Shown here: positions 1 to 17,812 of the stretch, piece after piece
Numbering within the stretch: position 1 is the first letter of the stretch
Layout: each line of letters begins with the position of its first letter
From: Bdellovibrionales bacterium
Lineage (GTDB): Bacteria > Bdellovibrionota > Bdellovibrionia > Bdellovibrionales > UBA1609
NCBI GenBank assembly: GCA_020435025.1
Contig: JAGRAG010000091.1
Span: 1-33,654, forward strand
Direction: 5' to 3'
Length of the DNA: 33,654 nucleotides
Position numbers and translations under genes: made by a program
Notes under the pieces: model-generated
What the model was told of the DNA's origin: nothing
Seen by the model: the letters and a program-made list of their open reading frames with translations, nothing else
Database searches by the model: none

Positions 1-426
1 ATTTAGTAACTCCTCTAGAAGTCCTATCAGAGTGTTTTTGAGAATCGGTATTATTTTGGATTCAAAATGCAAAAGGCAGTGAAATAACAATTCAATGAGC
101 AACTGATTGGAAGAAAGAATGCGAGTTTGTTGAAAGCACTTAGATTTTTTATTAAGCAATTTTGGATCCAGATAAAAAATCAATCGCTCTCCCTTTTTAG
201 CGCTGGAATAGAAGGAGTGTGAAACTTCTGAAGGCACAAAGACCATGGACCCCGGGCCAAGTGTCAATTTGTTATGATCAACTTCGAGGGCAATTTCGCC
301 TTGAAGAGGAATGATCACTTGATACTCAGGATGATGGTGCGGAGGAAGTTTCTTTCCTGGTTGATTTTGATGAATAATCATAAAGTCTTCAAACTTTTTG
401 ACTAAATCAATTTCGATTTCACTCAT
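1..426 (-). CDS. Cupin-domain protein, probably the N-terminal ligand-binding part of an AraC-family regulator (partial; continues beyond window start)
   Basis: Absent from the ORF track because it runs off the window. Hand translation of the reverse strand from the ATG (RC of 424-426) gives MSEIEIDLVKKFEDFMIIHQNQPGKKLPPHHHPEYQVIIPLQGEIALEVDHNKLTLGPGSMVFVPSEVSHSFYSSAKKGERLIFYLDPKLL...LIELLFHCLLHFE..., open to nt 1. An AGGAG Shine-Dalgarno sits 4 nt upstream (RC of 427-436 = taggagagaa). The H-x-H...G...H cupin pattern is typical of AraC N-terminal domains. Confidence 0.55.
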   Translation of the reverse strand, partial: MSEIEIDLVKKFEDFMIIHQNQPGKKLPPHHHPEYQVIIPLQGEIALEVDHNKLTLGPGSMVFVPSEVSHSFYSSAKKGERLIFYLDPKLLNKKSKCFQQTRILSSNQLLIELLFHCLLHFESKIIPILKNTLIGLLEELLN

Positions 427-440
427 TTCTCTCCTAAAAC

Positions 441-2975
441 TCAATCGTATCCAAACATGATCGTTTCATCTTGATTTGAGCCGCCAGTATCTGTCTTTGG
501 TTCATACCATGCTTGGAAACGTACATTCGTAGAAAAAAATCTATAACCTGCACCAACATTTTGTACACGAACTTTATAAGGAGCTAAGGACTCGGAACCA
601 GTTTTTACTAAATTAAGCGTCGTAACAGTTCCGCTTGGCGAAATCATATCTATGGTTCCAGGACCGACAGATGCCATCGCAACCCAATCTGCATTGACGT
701 TAATGGCAAACCTATACTTTAGCATACTCGTTGGGACGTACGTTGCAGCACAATTGCCATCTCCATCGGCATACGAGTTCCCAACGATGGGATGATCTGC
801 AATGACTCGAATGGCTTCTTCTTTATAGGCTCCCGACGTCCCTACCCCAGGAATGTTTTTAATGTTTCCTAAAGTCAAAGTGCCTGTACTAGTAGAACTA
901 TCGGAAAAATAGGCGGTGTAAGGGTTTCCTGTTATCGTAGTTGATATCTTTGCGCTCTTTGATGGGAAGCCCAAAATTCCAGGGCTACTGGGGAGAATAG
1001 GATGGGGATCGACAACACGTCCACTGTTGTTAGAATAAACATAAGCGATGATAAGCCCTGAACTGATCAACTCAAATCCGCCATTTGAGCTAATCGAGAA
1101 GGTTTGATTGCTATTTTCTGCAACAAATTGAGTAAATAAATTAGATCCACCACTAGAAATATTAATTGTAGAGTCGGTAAAAGCGTGAACTGTCACGACA
1201 TGAGGGTTGTCTCTAGTTCCCGTAAAATAAAATTCCTTTCCGGCCCAAGAAGATGTGCTCCAAACCATATTGCCTTTATTGACAGCGGACCCACTACCTT
1301 TTCTTCCGGCCACGAAAAATTCTTTATCTGAAGAAAGAATATCATTTAAGGCGCTTGTAAAGACATAAGTGTCGCCAGCATTAGCTAATGTTGTCAAAGT
1401 GGTTCCAGCTGGATAAGTGGCATTTGTCAAAGTGATAACTACTCCTGATTCCATGGCAACGACAGAGCTTTCCGTGGCACCACCAAGGTTAAATGCCGTT
1501 TTTAGATTTGGGTCAAAAAAGGTATCATTTGGTGTGGTAGAGCCTGTAGCCACATTGGAATAAGCTCCCCAAGCTCCATTATAGGCTTTTACACGAAAAT
1601 CATACGAAGAATTTGCGCTAAGGCCTGTAACAGTGGCGGTTGTCGATACAGAGACTCCGTCGACAAAGACATTCCAGATTGAATCTGCAGATAACTTATA
1701 TTCCACTTGGAAATCTGAGACGGGTGGTGCCGCAACGGACTGGGTCCAACCGAGATCAATTTGAAAGGGAGCGATATCGGTAACGCCCAAATTGATAATG
1801 GGAGGAATAATTGGCGATTCATCATCGTTGATTGTAAATGTGTGAGAGGTATTTGCTCCCAAAGTAATTCCCGCAGGAGAAGGGTTCGAAATAGTAATAA
1901 AAAAAGTTTCAGAAGACTCAGAGGCCCCATCGTTTAAAATAGATACGGGTAAATTTACACTTGTAGTCCCAGTTGGAATAATAATAGTTCCCGTGGCACT
2001 AGTGTAGTCTGCTCCCGCGGTGGCCGTTCCTGGCGACATACTATAATCAATGCTAACGTCCGAGGCACATGTGGCACTCATTTCAATAACAATGTTTACA
2101 ATTCCAGCACTTTCAGAATCATTGGAACTAGATTCTCTAAACTGAACCACCTGAGAATTACAGGATGCAGTAAGTATGGATGTATCTGTAAAATTAGTTG
2201 GTATAGTAAATTGATTTTTATCCACTGTAAATTGAATAGGTCCGATCGTATCAGCGCCAATAGTTATAATCGCTGATCGAACCCCTAAGGGGATATTACT
2301 AATGGCAAAATGACCTTGGGCACCTATGTTAATTGTAGTTTGTGAAAAAGTGACTCCTCCAGTTCCATTTGGATGGTAAATATCAATTGTCGCACTGGTA
2401 TCATCAGGATTTCCAATGCCTCCGTTGACTAAAAATCCGTGAACCGTTCCTAAATATAGCGACTGAGGCAGTGCAATGGTAATGTCTTGATCGAGACCGA
2501 CCCCTCCAGCAGCCCCATCAGCCCCCAAACTGACGAGCGTTGGCGGCGATCCCGCTACAGAGTAAACATAGTCATTGCCCCAAGCATCCTTTGTAAAGTC
2601 TTGACCCGTCGTATTTGACTGCAAATATGGCCCGTTCCATCCATGATTCAGTCGATGAGTGGTGTCGGTCGTCCAAGTCGTATGCCCTGTAGGTAATATT
2701 AACAAATCCGTTAGAGCGGATGGCAGGCTTCCAACATCACCAACATAACCAAACTGATTTCTGATTCCGCGGACGGAGGCGTCTGGATTTCCAACTATCG
2801 CATTGCGAATATCAATCATCTCACTGAGGGTTTCATCGTATTTTGATTCGGAGGTTGTTTCAGACACCTCAGATATGGTAACCGTCGTAATCACAGACAA
2901 CAGCATGATGATCATTAACAACTCTATAAGAGTAAAACCCATATTAGCAGATGTCTTATAAAAGGCTCGCAGCAT
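441..2975 (-). CDS. Giant GspG-type pseudopilin (type IV pilin-like N-terminus) fused to Calx-beta-like, FN3-like and unknown C-terminal domains
   Basis: Prepilin leader and cleavage/methylation motif MLRAFYKTSANMG|FTLIELLMIIMLLSVI. GspG-core motifs are present: GWNGPYL, DAWGNDYVY, LVSLGADGAAGG..DQDI. There is a Calx-beta-like stretch SIDYSMSPGTATAGADYTSATGTIIIPTGTTSVNLPVSILNDGASESSETFFITISNP (about nt 1881-2051) and an FN3-like stretch ...FQIDLGWTQ...FQVEYK...TVTGLSANSSYDFRVKAYN... (about nt 1530-1802). The last ~360 aa have no motif I recognise. The protein is very Ser/Thr/Gly/Asn-rich. Confidence 0.8.
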   Translation of the reverse strand: MLRAFYKTSANMGFTLIELLMIIMLLSVITTVTISEVSETTSESKYDETLSEMIDIRNAIVGNPDASVRGIRNQFGYVGDVGSLPSALTDLLILPTGHTTWTTDTTHRLNHGWNGPYLQSNTTGQDFTKDAWGNDYVYSVAGSPPTLVSLGADGAAGGVGLDQDITIALPQSLYLGTVHGFLVNGGIGNPDDTSATIDIYHPNGTGGVTFSQTTINIGAQGHFAISNIPLGVRSAIITIGADTIGPIQFTVDKNQFTIPTNFTDTSILTASCNSQVVQFRESSSNDSESAGIVNIVIEMSATCASDVSIDYSMSPGTATAGADYTSATGTIIIPTGTTSVNLPVSILNDGASESSETFFITISNPSPAGITLGANTSHTFTINDDESPIIPPIINLGVTDIAPFQIDLGWTQSVAAPPVSDFQVEYKLSADSIWNVFVDGVSVSTTATVTGLSANSSYDFRVKAYNGAWGAYSNVATGSTTPNDTFFDPNLKTAFNLGGATESSVVAMESGVVITLTNATYPAGTTLTTLANAGDTYVFTSALNDILSSDKEFFVAGRKGSGSAVNKGNMVWSTSSWAGKEFYFTGTRDNPHVVTVHAFTDSTINISSGGSNLFTQFVAENSNQTFSISSNGGFELISSGLIIAYVYSNNSGRVVDPHPILPSSPGILGFPSKSAKISTTITGNPYTAYFSDSSTSTGTLTLGNIKNIPGVGTSGAYKEEAIRVIADHPIVGNSYADGDGNCAATYVPTSMLKYRFAINVNADWVAMASVGPGTIDMISPSGTVTTLNLVKTGSESLAPYKVRVQNVGAGYRFFSTNVRFQAWYEPKTDTGGSNQDETIMFGYD

Positions 2976-2981: not shown

Positions 2982-3009
2982 ATTATAGCAATGTCATAGG
3001 AATTGACAA
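2982..3009 (-). promoter_or_regulatory. Candidate sigma70-type promoter placed for a leaderless (or nearly leaderless) transcript of the giant pseudopilin gene
   Basis: On the minus strand: TTGTCA (RC of 3004-3009), a 16-nt spacer, TATAAT (RC of 2982-2987), 6 nt (ttaaga), then the ATG (RC of 2973-2975). No Shine-Dalgarno fits between the -10 and the ATG. Confidence 0.4.
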
Positions 3010-3070: not shown

Positions 3071-3112
3071 GATTGGGATGGTGTATTGTCGATTTTTTTT
3101 CCTATTAGAAAA

Positions 3113-3574
3113 ATGCACAAAGTAATGATTTTTAGAAATCAAAACGGATACGGTCTTTGGGGCTTACTTCTCATTATTATTTTAATGACAAGTACAATGA
3201 CTTTTGTGTTGGTGAACCCTACATCAAGTCAATCTAGCAAAGAAATGAAGGATACCATTGAAAAGCTAGACCAGTTACTAGTGGCCATTTCTAAATACCA
3301 ACAAGATCATGCCACAGGGCTGTCACCTGTGAGTTTAAATTATTTACTTTCTGACATAGATGGTGTCGGCTGCAATGCGGATACGACGAATTCTAAAATC
3401 TCCGGTTGGTGTGGCCCATATGTCTCAGTATATTTCCAAGAATTTTTGCAAGAACCATTTATTGATGGCTGGAAGACCAATTTCCATTATGTGAACTCCG
3501 GTACTTTGAGGAGCTTTGGACCAAATCGGACAGATGATAGTGGAGGCGGAGATGATATTACGCGAACTTTTTAA
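3113..3574 (+). CDS. GspG-fold pseudopilin-like protein with a degenerate N-terminal motif (no Glu5)
   Basis: The track ORF starts at TTG 3086; I prefer the first ATG at 3113 (MHKVMIFRNQNG|YGLWGLLLIIILM...). The hydrophobic N-terminal helix follows a Gly, but the canonical G-F-T-L-I-E is replaced by G-Y-G-L-W-G. The C-terminal part keeps GspG-like motifs: SGWCGPYV, DGWKTNFHYV, SFGPNRTDDSGGGDDI. The start codon is uncertain. Confidence 0.5.
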   Translation: MHKVMIFRNQNGYGLWGLLLIIILMTSTMTFVLVNPTSSQSSKEMKDTIEKLDQLLVAISKYQQDHATGLSPVSLNYLLSDIDGVGCNADTTNSKISGWCGPYVSVYFQEFLQEPFIDGWKTNFHYVNSGTLRSFGPNRTDDSGGGDDITRTF

Positions 3575-4358
3575 TACATCAGGATTTTCACTCATTGAAA
3601 TGCTTATGGTTTTAATTTTGGTTGGAATTTTGTCTGTTTCCTCAATAGAGTATATTTCGGGATCACTAGATGAATCTCGATTCGACCAAACTTTACTAGA
3701 AATGCAAGCCATTCAGCAAGCCATCGTTGGAAACCCTGATATGAAGGAAAATGGTTCGAGAGTGAGCTTTGGTTATTTTGGTGATGTCGGGGCCATGCCT
3801 GCTACTATTTCGGATCTCATTGTGAAACCAGCCAGTATTGCTGCTTGGAGCATCGATAATACCAGACGTATGGCTTATGGATGGAATGGCCCTTATCTCG
3901 TCGGAGGCAATTCTGGTACGGATTATACAACGGATGGTTGGGGTAACTCTTATGTTTACTCACCAGCTGCAAGTCCGCCAACTTTGGTGAGTTTAGGTGC
4001 AGATGGCTTAGCAGGAGGAACCGGGTATAACCAGGACATAACGATTAGTTTTCCTGCTAACGAAAGACTGGCCACTGTTGAAGGCTTTGCTTCGGATACA
4101 GGTGGTCCCTTTGCAGGGGCGGCTGAAGCTGAAATCAATTATCCCGATGGTACTGGGGGAGTAACGAGTTCATTAGACACAGATTTGTCCTCCGAAAATG
4201 GACACTTTTCTTTTAGTAATATTCCCTTTGGAGTTCGGTCAATTTCCTTATATGAGCCAACAAAAGCAGGAGTAAATAGCCAAGTTGGACCGATTGTCAT
4301 TACCATTGATAGTCCGAATGCTCTTGTTCCCTCAAATTTAATTGATTTTAATCCTTGA
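3552..4358 (+). CDS. GspG-type pseudopilin with a C-terminal beta-sandwich (carboxypeptidase-regulatory-like) extension; paralog of the N-terminal third of the 844-aa protein
   Basis: The track ORF begins at 3516. I prefer ATG 3552, preceded by GGAGG (3542-3546), which gives the leader MILRELFNTSG|FSLIEMLMVLILVGILSV. Motifs GWNGPYL, DGWGNSYVY and LVSLGADGLAGGTGYNQDI align colinearly with the 441-2975 protein, including GHFSFSNIPFGVRSI versus GHFAISNIPLGVRSA. It overlaps the upstream gene by 23 nt in another frame. Confidence 0.8.
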   Translation: MILRELFNTSGFSLIEMLMVLILVGILSVSSIEYISGSLDESRFDQTLLEMQAIQQAIVGNPDMKENGSRVSFGYFGDVGAMPATISDLIVKPASIAAWSIDNTRRMAYGWNGPYLVGGNSGTDYTTDGWGNSYVYSPAASPPTLVSLGADGLAGGTGYNQDITISFPANERLATVEGFASDTGGPFAGAAEAEINYPDGTGGVTSSLDTDLSSENGHFSFSNIPFGVRSISLYEPTKAGVNSQVGPIVITIDSPNALVPSNLIDFNP

Positions 4359-4524: not shown

Positions 4525-5547
4525 ATGTTTACAATTAGGACTTCTCAATTTTTTAGACCTCTATTATTTGGAATAACGTCTATCTTATCTCTATTTCTGG
4601 TTCACTGCACTCGAGACAAAGGAGATCAAACTCGATTTGCGATCGTTGTAGAAAAGTCAGAAGTTCAAAAAAAGATAAGCGCATTAGAAGCTACCTGGCC
4701 TCCTACAGATCGTAAAGTTTGCTATGCAGTGAACGTCACGGCTCCTGATCTTCCAGCAACAAATTCGGGATGTGGCCCTGCTGAGGGAGTCAAAAGTCCC
4801 TTTGTTGAATCGGGGTCAACCATTGAAATGTTAGTCAAATTAGGAAGCGCTCGAAAGATTGAGGTGTTCGCTTATGTGGCTCCCACCTTGAACTCACCTT
4901 GTCCCGCTTGGACCTTTTCTTGTGATTCTCTCAAGTACTGCAATATGTACAAAGTAGCAGAAAAGACAGATGTAGAGATGTCGTCGGCAGTGACAGAGGT
5001 GACTTTAACGGCGGTCTTTCCGGGTTGGGATCAGTCGGCGACGCAGATTGCAGGACAACAGCAAGTCTGTAATGGTAAAATCAATGCAATGCTCTTTTCT
5101 AATGGCGACATAAAAGATGGAAGCGGTTTGACACTGACTTCTGATCTGTCAGACCCGACAAATGAATCCTTTTTCGGAAAGGATGTGTTTGATCAAGGTA
5201 TAATGACTTCTTACAGTCTTTTAAAAGATAGCCTCATATTCTCTGTCCCTCCTCAGGTTCGTTCCTTGACAAAAAGTCCTGAAACAGGCGAGTACTACGG
5301 ACTTATAGGGGCAGGAGAGCTGGTCAAGGTGGACCCGGCGACGGGTCAGTATGAATCCTTGGCTGCGAATTGTCCTTTTGCATCCTGCTCCTTACCAGCA
5401 TGGTTTCAAAGTATTAGTGTCGGTATGGAAAACCAAATCTACGGTCTCGACCATGGTGGTGCAATTTATAAGGTAACTGGATCTTCGTCGATAGAAAGTC
5501 TGCCGGCTACGGTCCCCAAAAATGTAACACAGGTATCTTATCATTAG
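4525..5547 (+). CDS. Putative lipoprotein of unknown function, with a repeat-like (beta-propeller-like?) C-terminus
   Basis: Signal peptide with a lipobox-like ...LSLFLVH|C. The C-terminal region has recurring G-x-x-Y-x-(L/V) segments: GEYYGLIGAGELVKVDPATGQYESL and NQIYGLDHGGAIYKVTG. There is no strong SD. Confidence 0.55.
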   Translation: MFTIRTSQFFRPLLFGITSILSLFLVHCTRDKGDQTRFAIVVEKSEVQKKISALEATWPPTDRKVCYAVNVTAPDLPATNSGCGPAEGVKSPFVESGSTIEMLVKLGSARKIEVFAYVAPTLNSPCPAWTFSCDSLKYCNMYKVAEKTDVEMSSAVTEVTLTAVFPGWDQSATQIAGQQQVCNGKINAMLFSNGDIKDGSGLTLTSDLSDPTNESFFGKDVFDQGIMTSYSLLKDSLIFSVPPQVRSLTKSPETGEYYGLIGAGELVKVDPATGQYESLAANCPFASCSLPAWFQSISVGMENQIYGLDHGGAIYKVTGSSSIESLPATVPKNVTQVSYH

Positions 5548-5620: not shown

Positions 5621-6367
5621 ATGAAGATGGTTTATTGGATTTTATGGCTGTGTTGTTTTAGCTTCGCTGAAGCTCGTACCGTTAACGTAATGATTGCCGA
5701 TAAACAGATCGCTCTAACGAATCCCTCAACGGTACCAGTAACATTTAATGTGAGCTGCTACGACTCTGCTGGTAGCCAACTAGTGAATCTTTCCGGAGAG
5801 ACTTTGGCTCCGAATGCCTCAAAAGTTTATGGAGGAAGTGTCGACATTTCTACGGTTTCCAACAATGATGCATGTTCAGCATCTGCCGTGATGGGCTACT
5901 TTTCCCACGTCAGTTGTGGATCGACTCTACAAGCAAAAATCTGCCCTGGAAGTGTGACTTATGCAAATGCATCGACTCTATGTGGACCTGGTTTAACTAT
6001 ATGTAAATACCTTCCTGGAAATTTCATGTCTTGTTCGGGACTAGCGGGATACTGGATGGCTCCTCCCGAAAGTGGAACTTTTGCTGCTTCAGCGGATGGA
6101 GGATGCACCTATAACTCTCTTACGGGAGCCCAGGGGATCGTTGTGTCCGATTACTACAGCTGTAGTTCGGCAGTGTATGGTCAAAAATGCCAAGTCAATG
6201 GAACAGATACAGTCAACTATGGATGTGGATTAGATAACGTTACGGCTTCATATGGAACGGTTTGCTGTGCCCTTCCATCGTCATCTTTCTGCAAAGTGAC
6301 GATCACTACCACAGATGTGAACGCTCATCTTTCAAGCCCTGGCTTTAAAGGGGGAGCTCCTTTTTAA
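5621..6367 (+). CDS. Secreted cysteine-rich protein, unknown function
   Basis: AAGGAG SD about 6 nt upstream of ATG 5621. Signal peptide MKMVYWILWLCCFSFAEA|RT. The mature part has 14 Cys, and I recognise no catalytic motif. Confidence 0.6.
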   Translation: MKMVYWILWLCCFSFAEARTVNVMIADKQIALTNPSTVPVTFNVSCYDSAGSQLVNLSGETLAPNASKVYGGSVDISTVSNNDACSASAVMGYFSHVSCGSTLQAKICPGSVTYANASTLCGPGLTICKYLPGNFMSCSGLAGYWMAPPESGTFAASADGGCTYNSLTGAQGIVVSDYYSCSSAVYGQKCQVNGTDTVNYGCGLDNVTASYGTVCCALPSSSFCKVTITTTDVNAHLSSPGFKGGAPF

Positions 6368-8214
6368 AAAACACCAAGCTGTTCTTCCATGAGTAACCAT
6401 TCGGGTTCGTTATTCGGGAATAGAACCTTTTCCATCGTCTTTCGATGGAACCACTGTTCCTGCAGCATCGCTTTAACTCCTTGGCTCCACGGATGATCTT
6501 TTGAGTTTGTTTTGGCAAGCTCATTAAAGGTCCATTTGTCCCAGGGTAGAGGCAGAACCTCTGAGGCCTTTTGAAATAAAAAGTATCCAAATACAAATGG
6601 CTGTCGTCGATAGTTCCAAATGGGTTCTAGATAAAGAGGCATCAAATGAGGAGACTCGATCACTAAAACCTTTGATTTCCATTTTAGTATTTCCGACATC
6701 ATTTGGTTATAGCCTCTCAAGGTCATTTCCGCTGAGAGCTGGCCTGAAAAAAATTGACGAGCTTGTTGCTGAAAATTCTTCCAACTGGGAATTTTTTGAC
6801 GAAAATCTATCTGATAAACTCGTTGAAGAGAATCTAAGTACCATGGCATTTGTATCAAGGAGGCATGAATCACGGGAACGTCGAGGGGAAATTTTTGATT
6901 TAACTGGGCTTCAAGTAAAGCGAAATAGAAAAAATCAATACTCGTTATAATTAGAGTTTGCTCGTCAACAATAGCCTCAATGTTTTTTGTCCATTCCGGA
7001 AGAACAGCAGGATAGGGTCCTTTTCTTATTTGATTTCCCATTCCCACAATCACAAGTGAACTCACCAATAGGACGAGCCCTTTTCTTAAAGATTTTTGAG
7101 AAACTTTGCTATAAAAAATGGCCAACCCTAAGGTCGAAGAAATAGATAAGAGCATCCACCAAGGTAAGTAGAAGGGCCACATCATACGATCAAATCCGGC
7201 GTTGATAGATGGACTCCCCGTAAAAGGATTGTAAAAACGAATGAACTGCGAAACCAATTCTCCAGAAGCGACTAAAAAAGTCAGCAAAATCCAAGGCCAC
7301 AAGAATTTCCGTTGATTCCAAACAAAATACAGAAAAAAAGGTAGGCACAGAACATACCAATAGGGGTCTATTAAAAAAGAGTATTGATGTTGCCAATGGT
7401 AGGCGAAAAGGCTGAGGTCATTTGGTAAAGACAGGCCTTGGTATTGCTTTCGAAACACCAGGTCCAATAAAAGAGAAAAACTTTCCGGATCTCCCCAATC
7501 TAAAATAGGCTGTTGAAATGAACGGATCACCAATAATAGAAATGGGGTCAAACCTAGAATAAAGAAAAACAAAGTTTTAGCCAAGCTAGTGAGAGATCTT
7601 GTCGGACTCACCCCGAAAAAAATCCAGCAAGCAGTTCCTGCAACAATCGCTAAATATTGATAGTGTGCTGAAATCAGAATTCCTGAAAGAAATGCTATCA
7701 GATATAAATTTTTATGACTGCAAGTGGTCTGACAGAGACACCTAAAAAGCACAAAAAGATAGAGCATCAAAAAAAGAGTGCTCACACTATATTTTTCTAG
7801 ATGTGAAAATTGAGCAATAGCCAAAGGATGAAGTGCAAAAAGTAGTAAACCACAACAGATCAACAAATAAGATAAAAAAGACAACACGTGAGTTTTTTTA
7901 GCAATTTCGGTGACTATTAAATATCCAAAAGTAAATGAAAAAGCACCGCAAAGAGAAGCCATCAAGGGTCCCAGGATCTCAGTGGGTAAAGGGAGCCACT
8001 GAAAGAGGAGAGAAAACAGGACAAACAAAGGGTAACCAGGAGGGTTTAAGAGGCTTCCCGTTTGAAAGGCGACATTGGCCAAAGCATTTGTTCCCGGAAT
8101 CGAGTAGGGAGTCGCTTGCCACCAAAACCAAAGAAAGCTCGTCAACCAGATGAATGCAGCAAAAAATAAACGCATACACATATAGTACCTGAATGATGCA
8201 AAGAGGGTACTCAT
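6364..8214 (-). CDS. Large polytopic membrane protein, GT-C-fold glycosyltransferase-like (resembles the DUF2723/TMEM260-like family)
   Basis: 616 aa with many predicted TM helices in the first ~400 aa, followed by a soluble C-terminal domain. The early loop motif ...GSLLNPPGYPLF... resembles the HPPGYPL-type loop I recall in DUF2723/PMT-like GT-C enzymes. The family assignment is from memory only. Confidence 0.5.
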   Translation of the reverse strand: MSTLFASFRYYMCMRLFFAAFIWLTSFLWFWWQATPYSIPGTNALANVAFQTGSLLNPPGYPLFVLFSLLFQWLPLPTEILGPLMASLCGAFSFTFGYLIVTEIAKKTHVLSFLSYLLICCGLLLFALHPLAIAQFSHLEKYSVSTLFLMLYLFVLFRCLCQTTCSHKNLYLIAFLSGILISAHYQYLAIVAGTACWIFFGVSPTRSLTSLAKTLFFFILGLTPFLLLVIRSFQQPILDWGDPESFSLLLDLVFRKQYQGLSLPNDLSLFAYHWQHQYSFLIDPYWYVLCLPFFLYFVWNQRKFLWPWILLTFLVASGELVSQFIRFYNPFTGSPSINAGFDRMMWPFYLPWWMLLSISSTLGLAIFYSKVSQKSLRKGLVLLVSSLVIVGMGNQIRKGPYPAVLPEWTKNIEAIVDEQTLIITSIDFFYFALLEAQLNQKFPLDVPVIHASLIQMPWYLDSLQRVYQIDFRQKIPSWKNFQQQARQFFSGQLSAEMTLRGYNQMMSEILKWKSKVLVIESPHLMPLYLEPIWNYRRQPFVFGYFLFQKASEVLPLPWDKWTFNELAKTNSKDHPWSQGVKAMLQEQWFHRKTMEKVLFPNNEPEWLLMEEQLGVF

Positions 8215-9876: not shown

Positions 9877-10656
9877 GTGAAGTTGCTGTGGATGGGTAGA
9901 GCCCTAGAAAGAGTGAGCATTATCTTATGGATGAGTGTGGTCCTGCCTGCCGTAGGTTCTCCTAAATATGAATTTTACAGCCAGTCTTACTACTCCAGCC
10001 GCTACGACAATTTTATCATCGATGGCAAACTCAACTGGATGTTCCCAGAAACATTAGGTGTCAGCCCCTATATAGGGATTTCCCTCAGTCAAGACAGTCT
10101 TTCTGATGAGACTTTCATTTATAATGAAAACTACCAGGCTCTACAAATAGGTCTGCGTTCAAAAAACTTCTTATCCAGTTACCTCTTTGTCGAAGGTCGC
10201 CAGTTAGCGGTTCAATCAGAGTCTAAGGTTATTCAAGATCGATCCCAACAAGACCTTCGCAGCGGAGGAGTTCATTATCATTGGCTCGACTTAAATTGGT
10301 TGTCCGCCTATCAAACCTATTTAGAATCCTATGGAGAGTTCTTTCATAGCACTCGCTTGAACGACCTTTTTTTGAATGTAATTTTAAGAGGGGGCCTCAC
10401 CACAAATCTCTCTTCTCAATGGACATTCGGTCCTTATTTCGCTGTTCAGTTGAAAAGAGATCGATCGGGTTTTTTTTATGAAAATAGTGATGAATGGCGC
10501 TCTGGAGTACGCACTGCCTACCAAGGGATCTCCCTTTATACCATGGTCTTTCTTACCTATGGAGAAGGACGTTATCGGCCAACGACAGGACAACAACCCC
10601 GCTCTCTTAATTTTGAAGAGACTCGAGCCCTCATAGCCATCGGAGGACATTGGTGA
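9877..10656 (+). CDS. Small predicted outer-membrane beta-barrel protein (possible exporter/NfrA-C-terminal analogue)
   Basis: Signal-like N-terminus (…IILWMSVVLPAVGS). Alternating aromatic/polar beta-strand-like pattern rich in Y/G/S/R, with a C-terminal ...ALIAIGGHW ending in an aromatic residue as in many OMPs. Its stop overlaps the next gene's ATG (TGATG). The start could be GTG 9877 or TTG 9883. Confidence 0.5.
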   Translation: MKLLWMGRALERVSIILWMSVVLPAVGSPKYEFYSQSYYSSRYDNFIIDGKLNWMFPETLGVSPYIGISLSQDSLSDETFIYNENYQALQIGLRSKNFLSSYLFVEGRQLAVQSESKVIQDRSQQDLRSGGVHYHWLDLNWLSAYQTYLESYGEFFHSTRLNDLFLNVILRGGLTTNLSSQWTFGPYFAVQLKRDRSGFFYENSDEWRSGVRTAYQGISLYTMVFLTYGEGRYRPTTGQQPRSLNFEETRALIAIGGHW

Positions 10657-12059
10657 TGGACCACTTTCTTCTGATTGATTGGGGACTCTACGCCATGATG
10701 GTTCTGGCCCTTCTTTTTTGTTTTTTCGGGATAGATGATTCCTTTATAGATTTCTGGTCGATCTTTAAAAAATTAGGACCAACCCTTATTAAGGATTCCG
10801 ACTGGTATTGGATCTCCTCTCTATCTGAGAAGCGCATTCTTATTTTAGTGGCTAACTGGCAGGAAGAAAATGTTTTAGAGGCCATGATCCAAGGCAACAT
10901 AAGTGGGATTGATTATCATAATTATCAATTTCTTTTAGGTGTTTATCCGAATGATTTTAAGACAAAAGAAATTGCAGAAAGGCTGGCTCAACAGTTTTCG
11001 CAAGTGCAGGTGATCGTCAATCCTCAAGACGGTCCGACCTCGAAAGGTCAGATGCTCAATGCCGTTCTTGATTCTATTTTTAAAAGTTCTGAACCCTATG
11101 ATGCCATTGTGATTCATGATGCTGAAGATGTGATTCATTCAGACGCTTTAAAACTGATCAATTGGCAATTAGATAAATTTGATTTCATTCAAATTCCAGT
11201 GTTTTCTTTAATACGGTCCTGGTGGCAATTGGTCGGTGGAACCTATATGGATGAGTTCGCCGAATCTCACACCAAAGATATGTTGGTGCGCAGTTCGCTC
11301 AAGGCCGCAATTCCGTCAGCGGGAGTGGGAACCGCCTTGAGCCGGAAGTTGGTTACGGAGTATTTAAAAAAAGAAACACTTTTTTCTCCCCATAATCTGA
11401 CAGAGGACTACTATCTTGGAATTCAATCCCATCTCAGAGGTTTTCCCGCGACCTTTGCTTGTTTTCAGAAAGACGATCCTCATAATTTCATAGCCACTCG
11501 AGAGTACTTCCCAAATAAAGTGCGGCAATCCGTTCGACAGAAGTCGCGATGGACTTTGGGTATAGCTTTGCAAAGTTTGCAGCAATTAGGATGGCAAGGC
11601 AGCGTCGCTAATCTTTATTTTTTGTACAGAGACCGCAAGAGTCCTTTGTCGAACTTTGTTTTGCTACTTGGAATGGGAACTTTTATTGTAGGCGTTTTTC
11701 TTTATTTGCTGACCCCTGGATTTTTAGTACAGACTCAGGATCACTTTCTATCTGAACATCTTGTGACTTATGAGATTTTTGTTGGGTTATCGATGGCCTG
11801 TTTTGCCTTTATGACTTTGCGTTGGGTGCAGAGGTTTCGGGCTGCTTATAGAGTTTATGGTCTTCGTCATAGTTGGGTCTCTCCCATTCGACTTCTCGTG
11901 GGTAATTACATTGCTGTTCTTTCTTCCACTTCAGCAATGGGGCAATTCATCAAAAACCGTATAAAGGGAACTGTACCTCTGTGGCAAAAGACCTTGCACG
12001 AAATTCCAAATGAGTTTGGAAGAGTCTCTGAGAAAAAAGAACCCATTTCGTCAAGATAG
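10656..12059 (+). CDS. nfrB: NfrB-type processive family-2 glycosyltransferase (exopolysaccharide synthase), lacking the C-terminal MshEN-type domain
   Basis: Colinear with E. coli NfrB as I recall it: GIDDSFIDF, VANWQEENV, YHNYQFLLGVYPND, GPTSKGQMLNAVLD, HDAEDV (nt 11118-11129 = DAED), IQIPVF, YMDEFAESHTKD, IPSAGVGTALSR, LTEDYYLG, REYFP..VRQSVRQKSRW (RQKSRW = nt 11535-11552), LYRDRKSPLSNF, W.KT.H..P. There are TM segments at the N-terminus and after the catalytic domain. ATG 10656 is preferred over TTG 10650, with GGAGGA at 10642-10647. Confidence 0.85.
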   Translation: MDHFLLIDWGLYAMMVLALLFCFFGIDDSFIDFWSIFKKLGPTLIKDSDWYWISSLSEKRILILVANWQEENVLEAMIQGNISGIDYHNYQFLLGVYPNDFKTKEIAERLAQQFSQVQVIVNPQDGPTSKGQMLNAVLDSIFKSSEPYDAIVIHDAEDVIHSDALKLINWQLDKFDFIQIPVFSLIRSWWQLVGGTYMDEFAESHTKDMLVRSSLKAAIPSAGVGTALSRKLVTEYLKKETLFSPHNLTEDYYLGIQSHLRGFPATFACFQKDDPHNFIATREYFPNKVRQSVRQKSRWTLGIALQSLQQLGWQGSVANLYFLYRDRKSPLSNFVLLLGMGTFIVGVFLYLLTPGFLVQTQDHFLSEHLVTYEIFVGLSMACFAFMTLRWVQRFRAAYRVYGLRHSWVSPIRLLVGNYIAVLSSTSAMGQFIKNRIKGTVPLWQKTLHEIPNEFGRVSEKKEPISSR

Positions 12060-12160
12060 AACCATTAGCCGTCCTGGATTTAAGAAAAATGTACATTTGT
12101 TTTTTCGAATATTGAAGCGGAGCAGAAAAACTGCTATTTCGAACTTCGACCCGGGGGTTA

Positions 12161-13420
12161 TTGGTGAAGAAGTTAGTTGTACTCATTTGGGGCACACGAC
12201 CAGAAGTGATTAAGATCGCTCCGGTTTATCTTGAGTTAAAAAGGCGCTCCGACCTGAGGATTCTCAATGTGATGACTGGTCAACACAGAGAACTTCTAAG
12301 AGGTCTGATTGAGCTGTTTGAGCTAGAATCGATAATAGATTTAGGGATTCACCACAAATCAGACTTGTCACAGTTTTCCGCGCAACTCATCCAGTCTCTT
12401 CAAGAAAAGGTTTTTAATCAATTTTCGGTAGATCTTGTCTATGTCCAAGGTGATACGACAACAGCTATGAACGCCGCTTTGGTTGCATTTTACAATAGAG
12501 TTCCCGTCGCGCACATTGAAGCCGGCTTAAGAACCTATGACAGCTATTCACCTTTTCCCGAAGAGATGAATCGACAGTTGATTTCTCGTATGGCTCGATG
12601 GAGTTTTTGTCCTACAAAAGGGGCAAAAGAGAATCTATTGAAGGAAGGATATCCCGAATCTCAAGCGCTAGTTACGGGAAACACCGTTGTAGATGCTTTA
12701 CGACGAGTTCGAAAACAGACTTTGTCCGATAGATATATTTCTGAAGTTCTTCCTGAGGAGTCGCCAGATCTTTTTCAACTTTTTAAAGATGGTCCTCTAA
12801 AAATAGCCTCTTGCCTGAAAGCTCTTGTGACCTTTCATCGAAGGGAAAGTCTGGCAAGTGGGGTTCATGAAGTTTTTTCGGCGATTGTCGAGATTGCTCA
12901 AAAGAACAAAGATGTCCATTTTATTTTTCCCGTACACTTAAATCCAAAAGTCGCACAGTCAGCAACGTTGTACTTTCAGCACATTGATAATGTTCATTTA
13001 CTGCCACCGTTAAGTTACAGACCGATGATTTTTCTTTTCGACCAAGTGGACTTTGCACTATCTGATTCCGGGGGCCTTCAGGAAGAATTCCCAGAGATGC
13101 AAAAACCCCTTTTGATTTTAAGGGCCAATACCGAGCGACCAGAGGTGGTTCACTTAGGACTGGCACGTCTTATTGGAACACATAAGAAAAATGTCATATT
13201 TGAAACTGAATCCCTACTCACTGCGCTTCGAAAAAATGAAGCACCCCATTGGTTTCGCCAAGCACCCAATCCCTATGGAGATGGATTGGCCTCTCAGAGA
13301 ATTGTAGAATGTTGCTTTCCAATTGATTTACAGGCAAGTTCCCTTCAAGAGCCTATAAATGAAAACTTATTACATGGCCTCAATCAAGACTCTCTTAATT
13401 TCACAGTACAGACACTATAA
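12161..13420 (+). CDS. wecB: UDP-N-acetylglucosamine 2-epimerase (non-hydrolysing)
   Basis: VLIWGTRPEVIKIAPV, VQGDTTTAMNAALVAFYNRVPVAHIEAGLRTYD..SPFPEEMNRQLISRMA, TGNTVVDAL, HRRES, PVHLNP, SDSGGLQEE, ERPE and NPYGDG are all hallmark WecB/MnaA motifs in the canonical order. The start is TTG 12161 or GTG 12164. Confidence 0.9.
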   Translation: MVKKLVVLIWGTRPEVIKIAPVYLELKRRSDLRILNVMTGQHRELLRGLIELFELESIIDLGIHHKSDLSQFSAQLIQSLQEKVFNQFSVDLVYVQGDTTTAMNAALVAFYNRVPVAHIEAGLRTYDSYSPFPEEMNRQLISRMARWSFCPTKGAKENLLKEGYPESQALVTGNTVVDALRRVRKQTLSDRYISEVLPEESPDLFQLFKDGPLKIASCLKALVTFHRRESLASGVHEVFSAIVEIAQKNKDVHFIFPVHLNPKVAQSATLYFQHIDNVHLLPPLSYRPMIFLFDQVDFALSDSGGLQEEFPEMQKPLLILRANTERPEVVHLGLARLIGTHKKNVIFETESLLTALRKNEAPHWFRQAPNPYGDGLASQRIVECCFPIDLQASSLQEPINENLLHGLNQDSLNFTVQTL

Positions 13421-13422
13421 GG

Positions 13423-14739
13423 ATGACTATGAAAAACTATTTTGTATTTCTGTTGACTCTCATTTCATGCATTTCTATTTCCGCCTCGGCTCGTGAAGTG
13501 CGTGGATTTAATCTGATAGAAGATGCCGGTTTTTTTTATGATGCCAATCTAAAGGCCACAAAAATCCATGAAAAGACACAAGCGCAAGTGACAGTAGACC
13601 GAGCCAAACTTTTGGGAGCCAATCATATTATTCTTAATCCCAGAGCCACGATGCTAGGTCCCTATAGCAACGATGTAAGACCGTTGACTAAGGGAATTCA
13701 GGTGAGCAAGGAGTACAGATCTTATCTGCGTCTTATTGAATACATCCGTTCGATAGGAATGACTGTGGGAATTCGTCCGATTCTGTTTGTGGTGAATAAA
13801 GAAGGAAAAACGCCATATATTGAAAAACGAACCGATGGCAGCGAAAAAATCTGGTGGCATGGTAATATTCAACCTTCAGATCCAAATGCTTGGTTTGAGT
13901 CGTTTCGCCTTTACATTGAGATGTATCTACGTATTGCTAAAAAGGCCCAGATCGAAGAATTTACGATTGGAGCCGAACTTTATAGTATGACGGTCGGAAT
14001 TGAGGACCAATGGCTCGCGCACCCCCATGGTTTTCCTTTGCAGTGGGAAAAAATTGTAGATCTTGTTCGAGGCTCGCTTCCTAAAGCTCGTATTATGTAT
14101 GATATCAATTTCACGGACGACAGCAATGTCAGTGGAGGACTGGGCAATACGGGCGGTGAATTGGAACGTTGGCGCTATCGACTTGTCGACTTAGGACCGC
14201 CTTTAGATCCTGGAGATCGTATCCGCTGGGAGCAAGATCCTAATGGCAAACCTATTTGGGATCATCTGGTTCGTTTTTGGAAAAAATTGGATGCCGTCGG
14301 AATCGATATGTATCGATCGTTAGCTAGTGAGTCGGATGAGATCCCTGACAACTATAGACAGCTTGTCTCTCTTTTATCTTCTCGATCGGATCGATATGCA
14401 TTGCAGCTGGAGCTGGCTTTAGCTGAAATCGAAGATTCTTTGGGCGAAGCCAAGCCTGTTATGTTTAAAGAGATAGGTTACAAAAGTGTGGAAAAAGGTT
14501 TTATTGATCCCTTCTCCTATGAAAAGCAGACAACAGATGTCAATTTAGAGCATCAAGCGGCCGCTTATGAAGCCTTTTTTAAGTCGTTTTGGGAGCCCGA
14601 GTGGACTTGGTTTTATGGAGTGAGTTTTTGGGACATTTCAACGAGCTTGTCCCGCAGTGGGGAATTGGATGCAGGGTTCAGTCCTTTGGGCAAACCCCTA
14701 ACGGAAAACGTAATAAAAAAATATTATTTGAGTCAGTGA
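13423..14739 (+). CDS. Secreted TIM-barrel glycoside-hydrolase-like protein (clan GH-A-like; family not assignable by eye)
   Basis: Signal peptide (MKNYFVFLLTLISCISISASA). The pattern is consistent with a (beta/alpha)8 retaining glycosidase: a candidate acid/base Glu in EEFTIGAELYS, a candidate nucleophile Glu in VMFKEIGYKS, and aromatic-rich strand ends (WWHGN, FWD). Confidence 0.45.
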   Translation: MTMKNYFVFLLTLISCISISASAREVRGFNLIEDAGFFYDANLKATKIHEKTQAQVTVDRAKLLGANHIILNPRATMLGPYSNDVRPLTKGIQVSKEYRSYLRLIEYIRSIGMTVGIRPILFVVNKEGKTPYIEKRTDGSEKIWWHGNIQPSDPNAWFESFRLYIEMYLRIAKKAQIEEFTIGAELYSMTVGIEDQWLAHPHGFPLQWEKIVDLVRGSLPKARIMYDINFTDDSNVSGGLGNTGGELERWRYRLVDLGPPLDPGDRIRWEQDPNGKPIWDHLVRFWKKLDAVGIDMYRSLASESDEIPDNYRQLVSLLSSRSDRYALQLELALAEIEDSLGEAKPVMFKEIGYKSVEKGFIDPFSYEKQTTDVNLEHQAAAYEAFFKSFWEPEWTWFYGVSFWDISTSLSRSGELDAGFSPLGKPLTENVIKKYYLSQ

Positions 14740-14740
14740 A

Positions 14741-15796
14741 GTGAGCGCCATCAAGTACTTAAGCATTCTTCTCTATTTCATAGCAATCTTCATTGCACAG
14801 ATCGGATCTGCGAACGAACAGAACCAAAGATCGCTCGTTTTGTCCGTTGATCCTGCGTGTCCCATCAAAAGAGATTCGATTCAGCACCTACCAACACCTG
14901 TGATCGCTATAGATCACTCCAATCAAACGGTCCATTTTGAACTGCGGCTTCCGATTCCAGAGGATATGCCGCAGGACCAGATTCCATTTTCGTCAGTTCA
15001 ACTGACACTTTTGAAAGATGATGAGACTGTGAAGCCCAAATTTACTCTAAAAAGAGCTTCACCTAATATTTTGTTATTTAAAGGTTCTTTTTTATACAAG
15101 TGGGTTCCTCCTCTTAGGAAACAGGCTCACTCTTTGTACTTTTTGGTAGATTTTCCAGAACCTATGAAAAGCTATTCGACTTCATTTTTGACCTACGTTC
15201 TTCACCCAAAGGGAGTCGTGCGACTGTTTGATTACTCTCAAGCTTGTCATGTCAGCTTCCCTCCTAGAGTGATCTCAAAAGCCTATGTCAATCGAGCGCA
15301 GTTTGGAAATCAGGACCTTGATTTTGGTGAAAGCCATGAATCCAGTCAGTGGTCCTATAAGGAGGATCTTGCAGGAATTTTGGAACTTAATCACTTTCGT
15401 GGTCGTTCTCTGGGTTCCATGGGCGTGGCTCAATCGCAACTTCAATTTTATTCAAGACATCGTTACACATCTATGAAGCAAAATCGCTTTGCTGTAGATC
15501 TGATTTTTCGCATTCCTGAAAATCTCTTTGGATATATCATACAACATGAGACCTTCCGCTATGTTCCTTATGCCGATATCCGTTTTTCAAATTGTGGTCA
15601 CTTAGAAATATCAGAAAAATTCCCATATCAGGATTGGCAAGCGGAACCACTGAAATCACATAGCTTACTGACGGTTGAGCCTCAGTATGTTGATAGCTGG
15701 GATTATATCGAAAATAGATTATTAGAGTATCCAATTATAAATGAATGTCGAGGACAAGAAAATGAACCAGATTTATCTCGTAACAGTACTAATTAG
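14741..15796 (+). CDS. Secreted protein of unknown function (paralog A of a tandem pair)
   Basis: GTG start 1 nt after the upstream stop. Signal peptide ...FIAQIGSA|NE. It shares Cys-anchored motifs with the next gene (QACHVSFPPRVISKAYVN; SNCGH). Confidence 0.5.
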   Translation: MSAIKYLSILLYFIAIFIAQIGSANEQNQRSLVLSVDPACPIKRDSIQHLPTPVIAIDHSNQTVHFELRLPIPEDMPQDQIPFSSVQLTLLKDDETVKPKFTLKRASPNILLFKGSFLYKWVPPLRKQAHSLYFLVDFPEPMKSYSTSFLTYVLHPKGVVRLFDYSQACHVSFPPRVISKAYVNRAQFGNQDLDFGESHESSQWSYKEDLAGILELNHFRGRSLGSMGVAQSQLQFYSRHRYTSMKQNRFAVDLIFRIPENLFGYIIQHETFRYVPYADIRFSNCGHLEISEKFPYQDWQAEPLKSHSLLTVEPQYVDSWDYIENRLLEYPIINECRGQENEPDLSRNSTN

Positions 15797-16793
15797 TTTT
15801 ATAGCTGTGACCTTTCCCGTCAGCGCGGACCTTCAAGTCGAGTTGGGCGTGCGGACAGAGTCTTGTCGCAAAGGGACTCTGTACGGTCTTAAAGAAAAGC
15901 AAAAGGTCAAAATGGCGGTGCGCGTGCCCAACGCTAACTCTGGAACCCTTCTTTATCGTTATTGGTTTTCAAATGATGGTTTTAAAATTTCTCCAAGGAA
16001 ATTTAAGGAATTGATCACCCAAGCTCAAAAAGGGACATCAAAGAACACATATGAATTTGAAATCCCAGAAATGAAAGAGAGTTTATCGGTCGCTCATATC
16101 ACCTTGGGAGTCGTCGTTTCAAACTCCTCAACTGGCGAAAAGGGCCATGCCTCTTATCGATATCCTGTCACCAGAGATCTCAAGTTTACTCTAAATGCGA
16201 ATCAGAAAATGGCGTGTCGACAAGTTTATCCTACGGAACCCATTCGTAGTATTTACTTCAATCAGAACGATACCGATATGCACTTGACGATCTCTGATGC
16301 TGAACAGCAGTTGCAGTCAGAAGAAGATCAGAAGTCTTCTGGTTGGAGTTTTTCTCCAAGCTTCTTTTTTAGCAACTTTGGCTTCAGCCTATTTGGATAC
16401 TCCAGTACGTATTTAAAAGGGATCACCGAGCAAACCAACCAAACCGTACTTGTGCAAGTGGAGCATCAGCTCAGCCCAGGTGATTCGGCTTTTATTTATC
16501 GACAGAAGACACGAATGAAAGAAGAGTACTTTGTTGACTGGGTAAACGAGTGTGGACAGTCACAGCAAGTGGGTTCTGCTTATATTGATTCATGGAAAAC
16601 AGTCTATAATGTGATTAAAGTGGATCCTTTGATGGAAAATCCGTATCACTCGAAAGCCTATGGCGAAGAGGTCGATAACACCTGTCGTGAGATAGATCAG
16701 TTTCCGCAATTTGATTTTTCAGAAGCGGAGTTCGAAAGCGATGATTCGACAGATCCTTTTGGAAACCCAGTTTTTTTCGATAGTTCTAGATGA
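15762..16793 (+). CDS. Secreted protein of unknown function (paralog B of a tandem pair)
   Basis: I prefer ATG 15762 (MNQIYLVTVLISFIAVTFPVSA|DL) over the track start 15741. It has motifs MACRQVYPTEPIRSIYFN and NECGQ matching paralog A. Its stop overlaps the next ATG (ATGA). Confidence 0.5.
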   Translation: MNQIYLVTVLISFIAVTFPVSADLQVELGVRTESCRKGTLYGLKEKQKVKMAVRVPNANSGTLLYRYWFSNDGFKISPRKFKELITQAQKGTSKNTYEFEIPEMKESLSVAHITLGVVVSNSSTGEKGHASYRYPVTRDLKFTLNANQKMACRQVYPTEPIRSIYFNQNDTDMHLTISDAEQQLQSEEDQKSSGWSFSPSFFFSNFGFSLFGYSSTYLKGITEQTNQTVLVQVEHQLSPGDSAFIYRQKTRMKEEYFVDWVNECGQSQQVGSAYIDSWKTVYNVIKVDPLMENPYHSKAYGEEVDNTCREIDQFPQFDFSEAEFESDDSTDPFGNPVFFDSSR

Positions 16794-17812
16794 TGGATTG
16801 TATTCAGATGCCTTTGCTGTTTTTGAAATCAACACTCCTGTTTTTTGGATTTTTAGGAGTCCCAACACCTCTTCATGCTCAGAGTTTTATTTCACCACCG
16901 CCTTTGGCCTTAAAGAAATATGATCCTGAGCATCGGATTGGGGTGCCGCTCACTTCACAAGCCTTTCGTTATGATCATTCGGTTCGTTTGATTCCTTCAG
17001 ATCATGATCCTTTAGGTGAGTCGACTTCGGCTCGTTTGCTGATGCAAATGTATCATTTAGGGGTTCGCCACATTGTTGTAGAAATTCCCAGTCTATTAAA
17101 AAGATCCTCCTCGCGCATCTACTTTGGTAATCAGTGGCGACCAGGAAGTCCGAAGGGTTTTTCTGTCTTCGTTGCTCAGGCAAAGAGTTTAAACATCGAA
17201 ATCACATTGGCACTGAAGACCTACGATGAAAGTGACGAAGTTATTTACTCTTTGTCTGAAGAACTTCGCGAATCGACTTTACAATCTTATGTGATATTTC
17301 TTCGGGCCTATGCCCAACTGGCAGAAAAAATTGGTATTGAAGAGGTTTCCATAGGCACGTTATTAGCAGACCTACCTTGTGATAACCGTTTGGGCTTTGA
17401 ACGGATTCTTCAACAAATCTCAGCTTGGTACCAGGGGCGGTTGCGAATGGATTTTTCAGATGAATTTCATTTCATTCGATCCTATAAATGTCTTAAGCAA
17501 AATTCTTCTCTGTTTTCAAGTTTTGCGATTCACAATTCTCCTGTAGCCACTGTATCAATACCTTGGAGTGCCCTACTTCCTTCTCAGACGCTTCTTTTTG
17601 AGGTGCCCTTAATAGGTCTCTATGCCCAACAAAAGAAGGTATTTTCGGAAATGACAGACTTCTGGGAAAAGGCCTTACACAAAGATCAATGGCAATTGGT
17701 GTTTGGCTCCTTTTATGCGGATCGAATGAGAGGTGGTCCCTATGATGAAAGCGATGCACTGAATTCCAAAAAAATTCTTGAGGATCTTGAGCAATGGTAT
17801 CTAAAGCACTAG
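16790..17812 (+). CDS. Secreted TIM-barrel hydrolase-like protein, apparently degenerate paralog of 13423-14739
   Basis: Signal peptide, then the same order of segments as the 13423 gene: LGVRHIVVEIP versus LGANHIILNP, and IGIEEVSIGTLLADL versus AQIEEFTIGAELYSM. The candidate acid/base Glu position is Leu here. The similarity is weak and judged by eye. Confidence 0.4.
   Translation: MMDCIQMPLLFLKSTLLFFGFLGVPTPLHAQSFISPPPLALKKYDPEHRIGVPLTSQAFRYDHSVRLIPSDHDPLGESTSARLLMQMYHLGVRHIVVEIPSLLKRSSSRIYFGNQWRPGSPKGFSVFVAQAKSLNIEITLALKTYDESDEVIYSLSEELRESTLQSYVIFLRAYAQLAEKIGIEEVSIGTLLADLPCDNRLGFERILQQISAWYQGRLRMDFSDEFHFIRSYKCLKQNSSLFSSFAIHNSPVATVSIPWSALLPSQTLLFEVPLIGLYAQQKKVFSEMTDFWEKALHKDQWQLVFGSFYADRMRGGPYDESDALNSKKILEDLEQWYLKH

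Follow-up and report, generated by a model that had tools for sequence, protein, structure and literature searches.

Modular pilins, in which a functional module is grafted onto a pilin module, were defined and catalogued by Raynaud et al. (2021, PNAS, PMC8179133), who reported >1,200 such proteins in 264 architectures, mentioned an 860-residue example with multiple repeats, and modelled a tip location for one member, PilB. Dataset S1 of that study contains pilin-FN3 fusions (12 proteins), fusions of a pilin with a PF13620 sandwich (66) and a pilin with three Calx-beta domains (1). Contig JAGRAG010000091.1 of a Bdellovibrionales bacterium, analysed here over its entire 33,654 bp (hereafter the window), carries an open reading frame (ORF) for a protein of this kind, an 844-aa modular pilin (positions 441..2975, minus strand, ATG start in the ORF list). 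Its pilin module is followed by Calx-beta, fn3 and a PF17517-like C-terminal domain (CTD), in agreement with the definition of the class as a pilin module with at least one C-terminal domain unspecific to type IV filament biology. We consider it fairly probable that the gene encodes a modular minor pilin of a type IV filament resembling mannose-sensitive haemagglutinin and type IVa pili (MSH/T4aP-like), holding a binding cargo at or near the tip. A 100% identical protein from a Bdellovibrionales metagenome-assembled genome (MAG) is recorded at NCBI as 'type II secretion system protein GspG', a misleading name that is corrected here.

The likeness to known modular pilins (PilB of Streptococcus sanguinis; PilC, CofB/TcpB) lies in the display of an adhesive module at the tip, which is predicted in both cases. 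The window protein differs from them in having a head of the GspG type, i.e., that of the major pseudopilin of type II secretion systems (T2SS), with four modules after it, and in its distal module, which is PF17517-like and common to lipoproteins rather than a von Willebrand factor A or lectin domain. It also comes from a diderm member of the Bdellovibrionota and is known here from its sequence. In the literature examined we found no description of the five-module architecture, of the PF17517-like distal domain, or of the GspG-like partner pilin without Glu+5 described below. These features are variations within the known class, and no new class is opened, since modular pilins, including FN3 and Calx-beta types, had already been catalogued in 2021. 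The fusion of cargo directly to a pilin, to which the initial annotation of this DNA drew attention, had therefore been described before and is less novel than that annotation implied.

The ORF is genuine, intact and not a chimera, because full-length orthologues with the same five modules were present in independent assemblies: P0002, 58% identical, in a Logan assembly, and P0003, 54% identical, in NCBI and JGI assemblies (five contigs). The mature protein has a computed mass of ~87 kDa and pI of 4.4. Its N-terminus reads MLRAFYKTSANMG|FTLIELLMIIMLLSVITTVTI, with a basic class III (prepilin) leader of residues 1–13 (MLRAFYKTSANMG; 2937..2975; this and the following modules are on the minus strand) ending in Gly-1, then Phe+1, Glu+5 and ~21 hydrophobic residues, as read directly from the sequence. 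The pilin module (residues 14–170; 2466..2936) was assigned by Pfam, AlphaFold2 (AF2) and Foldseek and comprises the stretch Phe+1...Glu+5, the hydrophobic alpha1 helix and a GspG-fold head. Pfam T2SSG (PF08334) matched residues 107–166 (E = 3e-9, 37.3 bits against a cut-off of 21), PDB sequence matches to GspG covered residues 127–165, and the head terminated in the GspG-type loop GADGAAGGVGLDQDI. An AF2 model of residues 1–272 built with 30 homologues (predicted local distance difference test score, pLDDT, 89; predicted template modelling score, pTM, 0.81) consisted of a 46-residue alpha1 helix (16–61), the head, and a beta-sandwich at ~170–270. Thus, the features expected of a pilin, a class III leader and a long alpha helix on a beta-sheet head, were both found, the former in the sequence and the latter in the model.

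Foldseek superposed the head on the EpsG/GspG crystal structures 3gn9, 3fu1 and 4lw9 (template modelling score, TM, 0.62–0.73; probability 1.0). The likeness to GspG/EpsG/PulG extends to the leader motif G|FTLIE and to the C-terminal G-x-DG-x-GG...D-x-DI loop, a calcium-binding site in GspG. The beta-sandwich following the head (~residues 171–270; 2166..2465; AF2 strands at 175–257) fell among CnaB/transthyretin-like sandwiches in the Foldseek search. It is common to a 280-aa paralogue encoded next to the modular pilin and to a broad family of 235–400-aa pilins (alignment A2), and PF13620 was found in one relative (P0277). Next come a Calx-beta domain (residues 275–385; 1821..2153; Pfam E = 6.6e-16), whose region matched the calcium-binding domain (CBD) of Na/Ca exchangers in the PDB at E = 1e-12, and an FN3 domain (residues 395–477; 1545..1793; Pfam fn3, E = 4.7e-10). 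Cys272 and Cys303 were invariant across seven aligned carrier pilins (alignment A3). The remainder is the CTD (residues 478–844; 444..1544; HMMER and AF2), an all-beta domain that ends in the conserved motif DETIMFGYD. Pfam, AF2 and Foldseek together confirmed the order of leader, GspG-type head, beta-sandwich, Calx-beta, FN3 and large CTD given in the initial annotation.

Ser, Thr and Gly make up 33% of CTD residues 478–844. A word-indexed homologue search using the CTD alone returned 2 proteins, and an exhaustive HMMER search with residues 481–844 was needed to reveal the family: 273 cluster representatives (50%-cluster level) at E ≤ 1e-3, 93 of them at E ≤ 1e-30. In nearly all homologues the CTD occupied the extreme C-terminus of proteins of 500–3400 aa, with the conserved ending DETI(M/L)(F/Y)G. 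Most of the family N-termini that were read carried lipoprotein-type signal peptides (...L-x-S/G-C); among them, the pilin motif was seen only in P0001–P0003 and P0173. The nearest relatives of the CTD (51–54% identity) were lipoproteins, and in the lipoprotein relatives Ig-like stalk domains preceded FN3 and the CTD. Since fn3 stood immediately before the CTD in 10/10 relatives scanned, we regard FN3 and the CTD as one fixed cassette. Looking up the names of ten clusters of CTD relatives gave nothing informative.

The window's own CTD matched no Pfam family, and PF17517 (IgGFc_binding) was not reached at E ≤ 10. PF17517 was, however, matched by 17 of the 27 aligned family members (best E = 4e-10), the match spanning part of the CTD only, and its gathering score (25.6 bits) was exceeded by 4/10 full-length relatives (P0123, P0126, P0132, P0173). 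This points to a distant relationship of the CTD to PF17517, rather than to an orphan domain. The CTD family profile had no match in PDB by sequence at E ≤ 10, and a PDB search with the full protein returned Calx-beta, FN3 and GspG chains only, with nothing for the CTD beyond FN3. The C-terminal region was also examined by AF2 and Foldseek, as the initial annotation had suggested. The model (m58f8f5459f05) was a confident all-beta fold (pLDDT 94.1, pTM 0.91), whose sole true structural match, among viral models in BFVD, was the phaeovirus protein FirrV-1-C4 (Q6XLX4; E = 2e-22, TM 0.77, 18% identity), from a virus of the brown alga Feldmannia irregularis. Nine Foldseek matches to PDB at E ≤ 0.001 were rejected as meaningless local beta-sandwich similarity (all TM ≤ 0.17, root-mean-square deviation >20 Å), as were phage tail, PA14 and lectin matches among the viral models (TM < 0.2). 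The phaeovirus match hints that the modelled fold may be shared with eukaryotic or viral PF17517-like proteins; a literature search on PF17517 found nothing relevant. The description of this domain as unknown thus stood in part: the window copy lacks a PDB sequence match or a Pfam match, while the domain has a confident fold, a family of 273 representatives and a PF17517 relationship. The proposal of an enzyme-like cargo fared less well. The CTD alignment contained no invariant His or Cys and no catalytic family was matched, and for these reasons a binding role of the CTD appears more likely than an enzymatic one.

Carrier pilins that were 44–53% identical to the window protein over head, sandwich and Calx-beta bore other C-terminal ends. 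In P0004, P0005 and P0007, a ~250-aa glycine-rich domain took the place of FN3 and the CTD, and P0006 had a right-handed beta-helix followed by the glycine-rich domain, which resembled Pfam Gly_rich_2 weakly (20 bits); these carriers with a glycine-rich end (P0004–P0007) include those encoded at 10001-11896 of locus L003 and 10001-12880 of locus L004. P0173 combined a pilin head with FN3 and the CTD, without Calx-beta. The simplest history suggested by these comparisons would be the grafting of a surface-lipoprotein cassette onto a duplicated head-and-sandwich pilin. Because the same FN3-CTD cassette ends hundreds of large proteins, of which nearly all those read are lipoproteins, we propose that the pilin version is a filament-mounted copy of a surface binding module.

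Two further pilin genes accompany the modular pilin. The 280-aa paralogue (3516..4358, plus strand; its likely ATG at 3552 would give 268 aa) consists of a GspG-type head and a beta-sandwich without further cargo. It was 46% identical to residues 1–264 of the modular pilin (E = 6e-75), matched Pfam T2SSG and N_methyl, and was 50–63% identical to 271–281-aa genes adjoining modular pilin orthologues in L001, L003 and L004. The other gene encodes a small, 162-aa GspG-like pilin (3086..3574, plus strand) that lacks Glu+5 (leader end ...NQNG|YGLWG), has the C-terminal signature GWCGPY...DGW...GGGDDI and contains conserved Cys pairs (QGWCGPY...SCGPD). This small pilin was not recognised by Pfam or NCBIfam. 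Its orthologues were located by tblastn beside the paralogue in 9 other Bdellovibrionota loci, L001 (12629-13054, minus strand), L003 (12694-13134, minus strand), L007, L009, L011, L013, L014, L016 and L017. Glu+5 was missing from 10/10 copies read, the +5 residue in the orthologues being G, S or T. A 157-aa Glu+5-bearing pilin of L001 was tried as the counterpart of the window's 162-aa pilin and dropped, as tblastn favoured a 141-aa gene without Glu+5. All three pilins, i.e., the one without Glu+5, the ~275-aa paralogue and the modular pilin, were found side by side in the window, L001 and L003; L004 had the paralogue and the modular pilin. This association was kept while gene order and orientation varied, being divergent in the window, convergent in L001 and L003, and tandem in L004.

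Among the pilins of T2SS and type IV pili, those without Glu+5 (GspK, PilX, PilK) are considered to sit at the very apex (PMC12918778). Because of this analogy, the small pilin is a candidate cap, and we infer that it may cap the fibre with the ~275-aa pilin and the modular pilin beneath it. Like GspK and PilX it is cap-like in lacking Glu+5, but here this lack is combined with a GspG-like head.

The candidate assembly machine came to light in relatives. In locus L001, from the Bdellovibrionaceae MAG GCA_018663505.1, the orthologue P0003 (54% identical) has a secretin gene on one side and an MshEN-T2SSE ATPase gene on the other, in the same cluster as T2SSF, PilM, PilN and PilO. The gene order there is a 167-aa pilin, T2SSF platform, AAA_22 ATPase, tetratricopeptide repeat (TPR) protein, PilM, PilN, PilO, a 151-aa protein and secretin; then the modular pilin orthologue and three small pilin-like genes convergent with it; then the MshEN+T2SSE ATPase, a response regulator and a PilZ protein. 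The carrier P0004, which has a different cargo, adjoins the same gene set in L003; MshEN+T2SSE, AAA_22, TPR and secretin genes flank the orthologue in both loci, each of which has a complete type IV filament cluster. By NCBIfam every machine component of L001 scored below its equivalog cut-off. The ATPase was about equally PilB- and GspE-like and contained the MshE c-di-GMP motif NF053729 (47.6 bits against 38); for the secretin the PilQ model was best, and the PilQ and GspD models were better than MshL (130 bits against a cut-off of 250). We therefore call this an MSH/T4aP-like type IV filament machine from its sequence features and leave it without a named system. That it has PilM/N/O in place of GspC/L/M speaks against a classical T2SS. 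Related clusters contain a separate small pilin of 160–175 aa (167 aa in L001) beside the platform gene, which is the more plausible major subunit.

Scanning with the carrier alignment (A3), one genome per species, yielded 281 relatives, Bdellovibrionota first, then Zixibacteria, Ignavibacteria, Calditrichota and Marinimicrobia. By tblastn, an ATPase, platform, secretin or PilM gene lay within 10 kb in 37 of 83 loci, 10 of these loci belonging to Bdellovibrionota. Arrays of two to five pilins of 130–1056 aa were the norm in the carrier loci examined; enlarged pilins therefore appear typical of this filament type, with the window protein at the upper end of the size range. The loci from Zixibacteria, Ignavibacteria, Calditrichota and Marinimicrobia (L018–L083) had tandem arrays of three to five head-and-sandwich pilins of 235–906 aa each, which often adjoined ATPase, platform and secretin genes. 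This looks like a widespread filament type, with many enlarged pilins, in uncultured lineages of the Fibrobacteres-Chlorobi-Bacteroidetes (FCB) group.

From this anatomy, the folds, the family relationships and the neighbourhoods of relatives, we propose that the modular pilin is processed, incorporated into a fibre at or near its tip, and used for binding, as follows. Prepilin peptidase would cleave after Gly13, and the protein would enter the filament by its alpha1 helix and GspG-fold head, alongside the two co-encoded paralogous pilins. The 268–280-aa head-and-sandwich pilin and the small pilin without Glu+5 would act as its partners, the small one probably as the fibre cap. The C-terminal 670 residues would stay outside polymerisation, with beta-sandwich, Calx-beta and FN3 forming a stalk that holds the 367-aa all-beta CTD distally. 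The CTD would bind a surface ligand, with attachment to a surface, possibly of prey or particles, as its likely role, and few copies would be expected, at the fibre tip or close to it. The general idea of the initial annotation, a pilin displaying cargo on a fibre, is upheld in this form.

Several observations weigh against this proposal. The window lacks genes for a secretin, an ATPase or a platform protein (Pfam on 20 of the larger ORFs; tblastn with machinery proteins of a relative), as the initial annotation had correctly stated for this contig, and has no prepilin peptidase gene; the coupling of the modular pilin to a machine consequently rests on its relatives. The machine is most probably encoded elsewhere in this genome. 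In L002 and L004, too, the modular pilin orthologue is away from machinery. The Pfam N_methyl (PF07963) score of the window protein was 9.8 bits against a cut-off of 21.2, a cut-off passed by the relatives P0004 (22.9) and P0173 (22.7); NCBIfam did not report TIGR02532 for the window modular pilin, and the paralogue reached it (23.3 against 16.3). The modular pilin keeps Glu+5 and is thus not necessarily the most apical subunit, and C-terminal attachment through the sandwich might allow its incorporation along the shaft. As to binding, the FCGBP N1 domain, which defines PF17517, is of unknown function, and IgG binding by it has been contradicted (PMC11796319).

The retained Glu+5, together with a head most similar to the major pseudopilin GspG, would also suit a major or abundant subunit, each copy carrying an 80-kDa appendage in a 'bottle-brush' filament. 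The cargo joins the C-terminal end of the head via a separate sandwich and could point outward, and a location in the filament body is considered possible for modular pilins if the linker is flexible (PMC8179133). We nonetheless find such a filament improbable: the related clusters have their own 160–175-aa pilin adjoining the platform gene, the modular pilin travels with minor-pilin-like partners, one of which lacks Glu+5, and close relatives carry different cargo, a variability typical of adhesin tips. From general knowledge of channel sizes, a shaft with ~670 extra residues per subunit would also be unlikely to pass a secretin. Slightly less improbable, but still unlikely, is that the head does no more than anchor the protein in the inner membrane or provide an export handle, the protein being periplasmic or membrane-bound, or a self-carried secretion substrate that is released or retained at the surface. 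The head is of the T2SS type, and T2SS pseudopili function as pistons, not as long fibres. Moreover, the same cargo cassette otherwise sits on lipoproteins that need no pilus, and both this contig and L002 are without machinery nearby. This explanation does not easily account for the conservation of the carrier with two pilin partners and, in most Bdellovibrionota loci, a PilMNO-secretin machine. A conserved linker or cleavage site separating head from cargo was not seen, and head and sandwich are predicted to pack together in the AF2 model of residues 1–272.

That the protein is an ordinary T2SS major pseudopilin GspG with irrelevant C-terminal extensions is very improbable, even though the NCBI name and the Pfam T2SSG match suggest it and the initial annotation placed it among T2SS pseudopilins. 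The GspG equivalog model TIGR01710 was matched with 45.1 bits against a cut-off of 88.85, in two stretches covering only part of the model (the best at model positions 73–132). At 844 aa against ~140, the protein is six times the usual length of GspG, and the extensions are conserved, folded domains. The relatives, moreover, belong to clusters with PilM/N/O, a secretin and an MshE-type ATPase, not to a gsp operon with GspC/L/M. Least credible of all is an assembly chimera or a decaying pseudogene fusion. The contig is metagenome-assembled and the gene stops 440 bp short of its edge, but the same five-module architecture recurs full-length at 54–58% identity in independent assemblies from other samples, the frame is uninterrupted, GC content is even along the gene, and all modules fold or match domain models. 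The chimera that the initial annotation had named as grounds for its own rejection was thus not found.

The filament to which we assign the modular pilin appears to resemble the MSHA pilus of Vibrio cholerae in several components, judging from the relatives' machine: an MshEN-domain ATPase, an ExeA/MshM-like AAA ATPase, a TPR protein, PilM/N/O-like proteins and a secretin. The window has no equivalents of MshE, MshL, MshM or MshN, and the relative's components score below equivalog cut-offs. A large accessory protein, presumably at the tip, is a further likeness to MSHA with MshQ and to PilY1/PilC. In a published model, MshQ and PilY1 dock on a minor-pilin complex through a C-terminal strand (PMC12918778); those proteins are not pilins, whereas the cargo in the window is covalently part of one. 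Pfam and NCBIfam found no PilY1 beta-propeller in the modular pilin, and the CTD model had no propeller-like PDB match. Within the same phylum, Bdellovibrio bacteriovorus has chimeric fibre adhesins (Caulton et al., 2024, PMC10769870), which are described as a conserved scaffold with exchangeable distal binding domains that recognise surfaces. The likeness to the modular pilin is conceptual: the adhesins are fibre proteins, not pilins, and no sequence relationship between them and the modular pilin was found.

More speculatively, and with only a small chance of being right, the carrier, the cap without Glu+5 and the ~275-aa partner could form a dedicated, cargo-swapping tip module of a distinct MSH-like filament built entirely of GspG-like pilins and used for receptor binding in predatory Bdellovibrionota, to recognise prey or particles. 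The swappable cargo would then be FN3 with the PF17517-like domain borrowed from lipoproteins, the glycine-rich domain, or the beta-helix, an assignment we hold just as tentatively. If true, such a module would parallel, on a pilus, the tips of phage tail fibres and the chimeric fibre adhesins of Bdellovibrio. If the tip-pilin proposal itself is true, it identifies a filament, and the subunit that presents a large binding module on it, in an uncultured Bdellovibrio-like bacterium. It would further tie to surface attachment a widespread, uncharacterised CTD known from hundreds of cluster representatives, most of them lipoproteins, and related to a protein of a brown-algal virus, and would reveal two display modes, lipid-anchored and pilus-mounted, for one cargo.

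Upstream of the modular pilin gene, a consensus scan found a near-consensus, sigma-70-like promoter site, TTGTCA-16-TATAAT (2982..3009, minus strand; 11/12 matches, and with the TG element TTGTCA-16-TGcTATAAT), which stops 7 nt before the ATG at 2975. If used, it would imply a leaderless or nearly leaderless mRNA, or a start at the second ATG (Met12). Counts in the promoter and terminator scan equalled chance expectation in the region, so this site is a lead only. A cupin/AraC-N-terminal-like ORF (1-426, minus strand) begins 15 nt downstream of the modular pilin stop; since it runs off the contig end, genes beyond it on that side are not visible.

On the other side, a 340-aa lipoprotein (signal ...LVHC; 4525-5547, plus strand) and a 248-aa Cys-rich protein with a signal peptide (5621-6367, plus strand) follow the 280-aa pilin on the same strand. 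Neither had a family match above threshold, and no homologues of them were found in the related loci. At 6364-8214 (minus strand), 2 kb from the pilin genes, lies a 616-aa homologue of TMEM260-like (PF11028) GT-C-type protein O-mannosyltransferases. It might glycosylate the pilin, whose cargo is rich in Ser and Thr; next to the orthologues in L001–L004 no such gene was seen. Elsewhere in the window, Pfam identified a major facilitator superfamily (MFS) transporter, a radical-SAM protein, a FecR-like protein, acyl-activating and reductase enzymes and a histidine kinase. The stretch 9877-19470 (plus strand) contains an exopolysaccharide-type operon with a synthase-like protein of glycosyltransferase family 2 (GT2), a UDP-GlcNAc 2-epimerase, a hydrolase similar to glycoside hydrolase family 113 (GH113), a DUF2334 protein (deacetylase-like family) and several ORFs without a family match.

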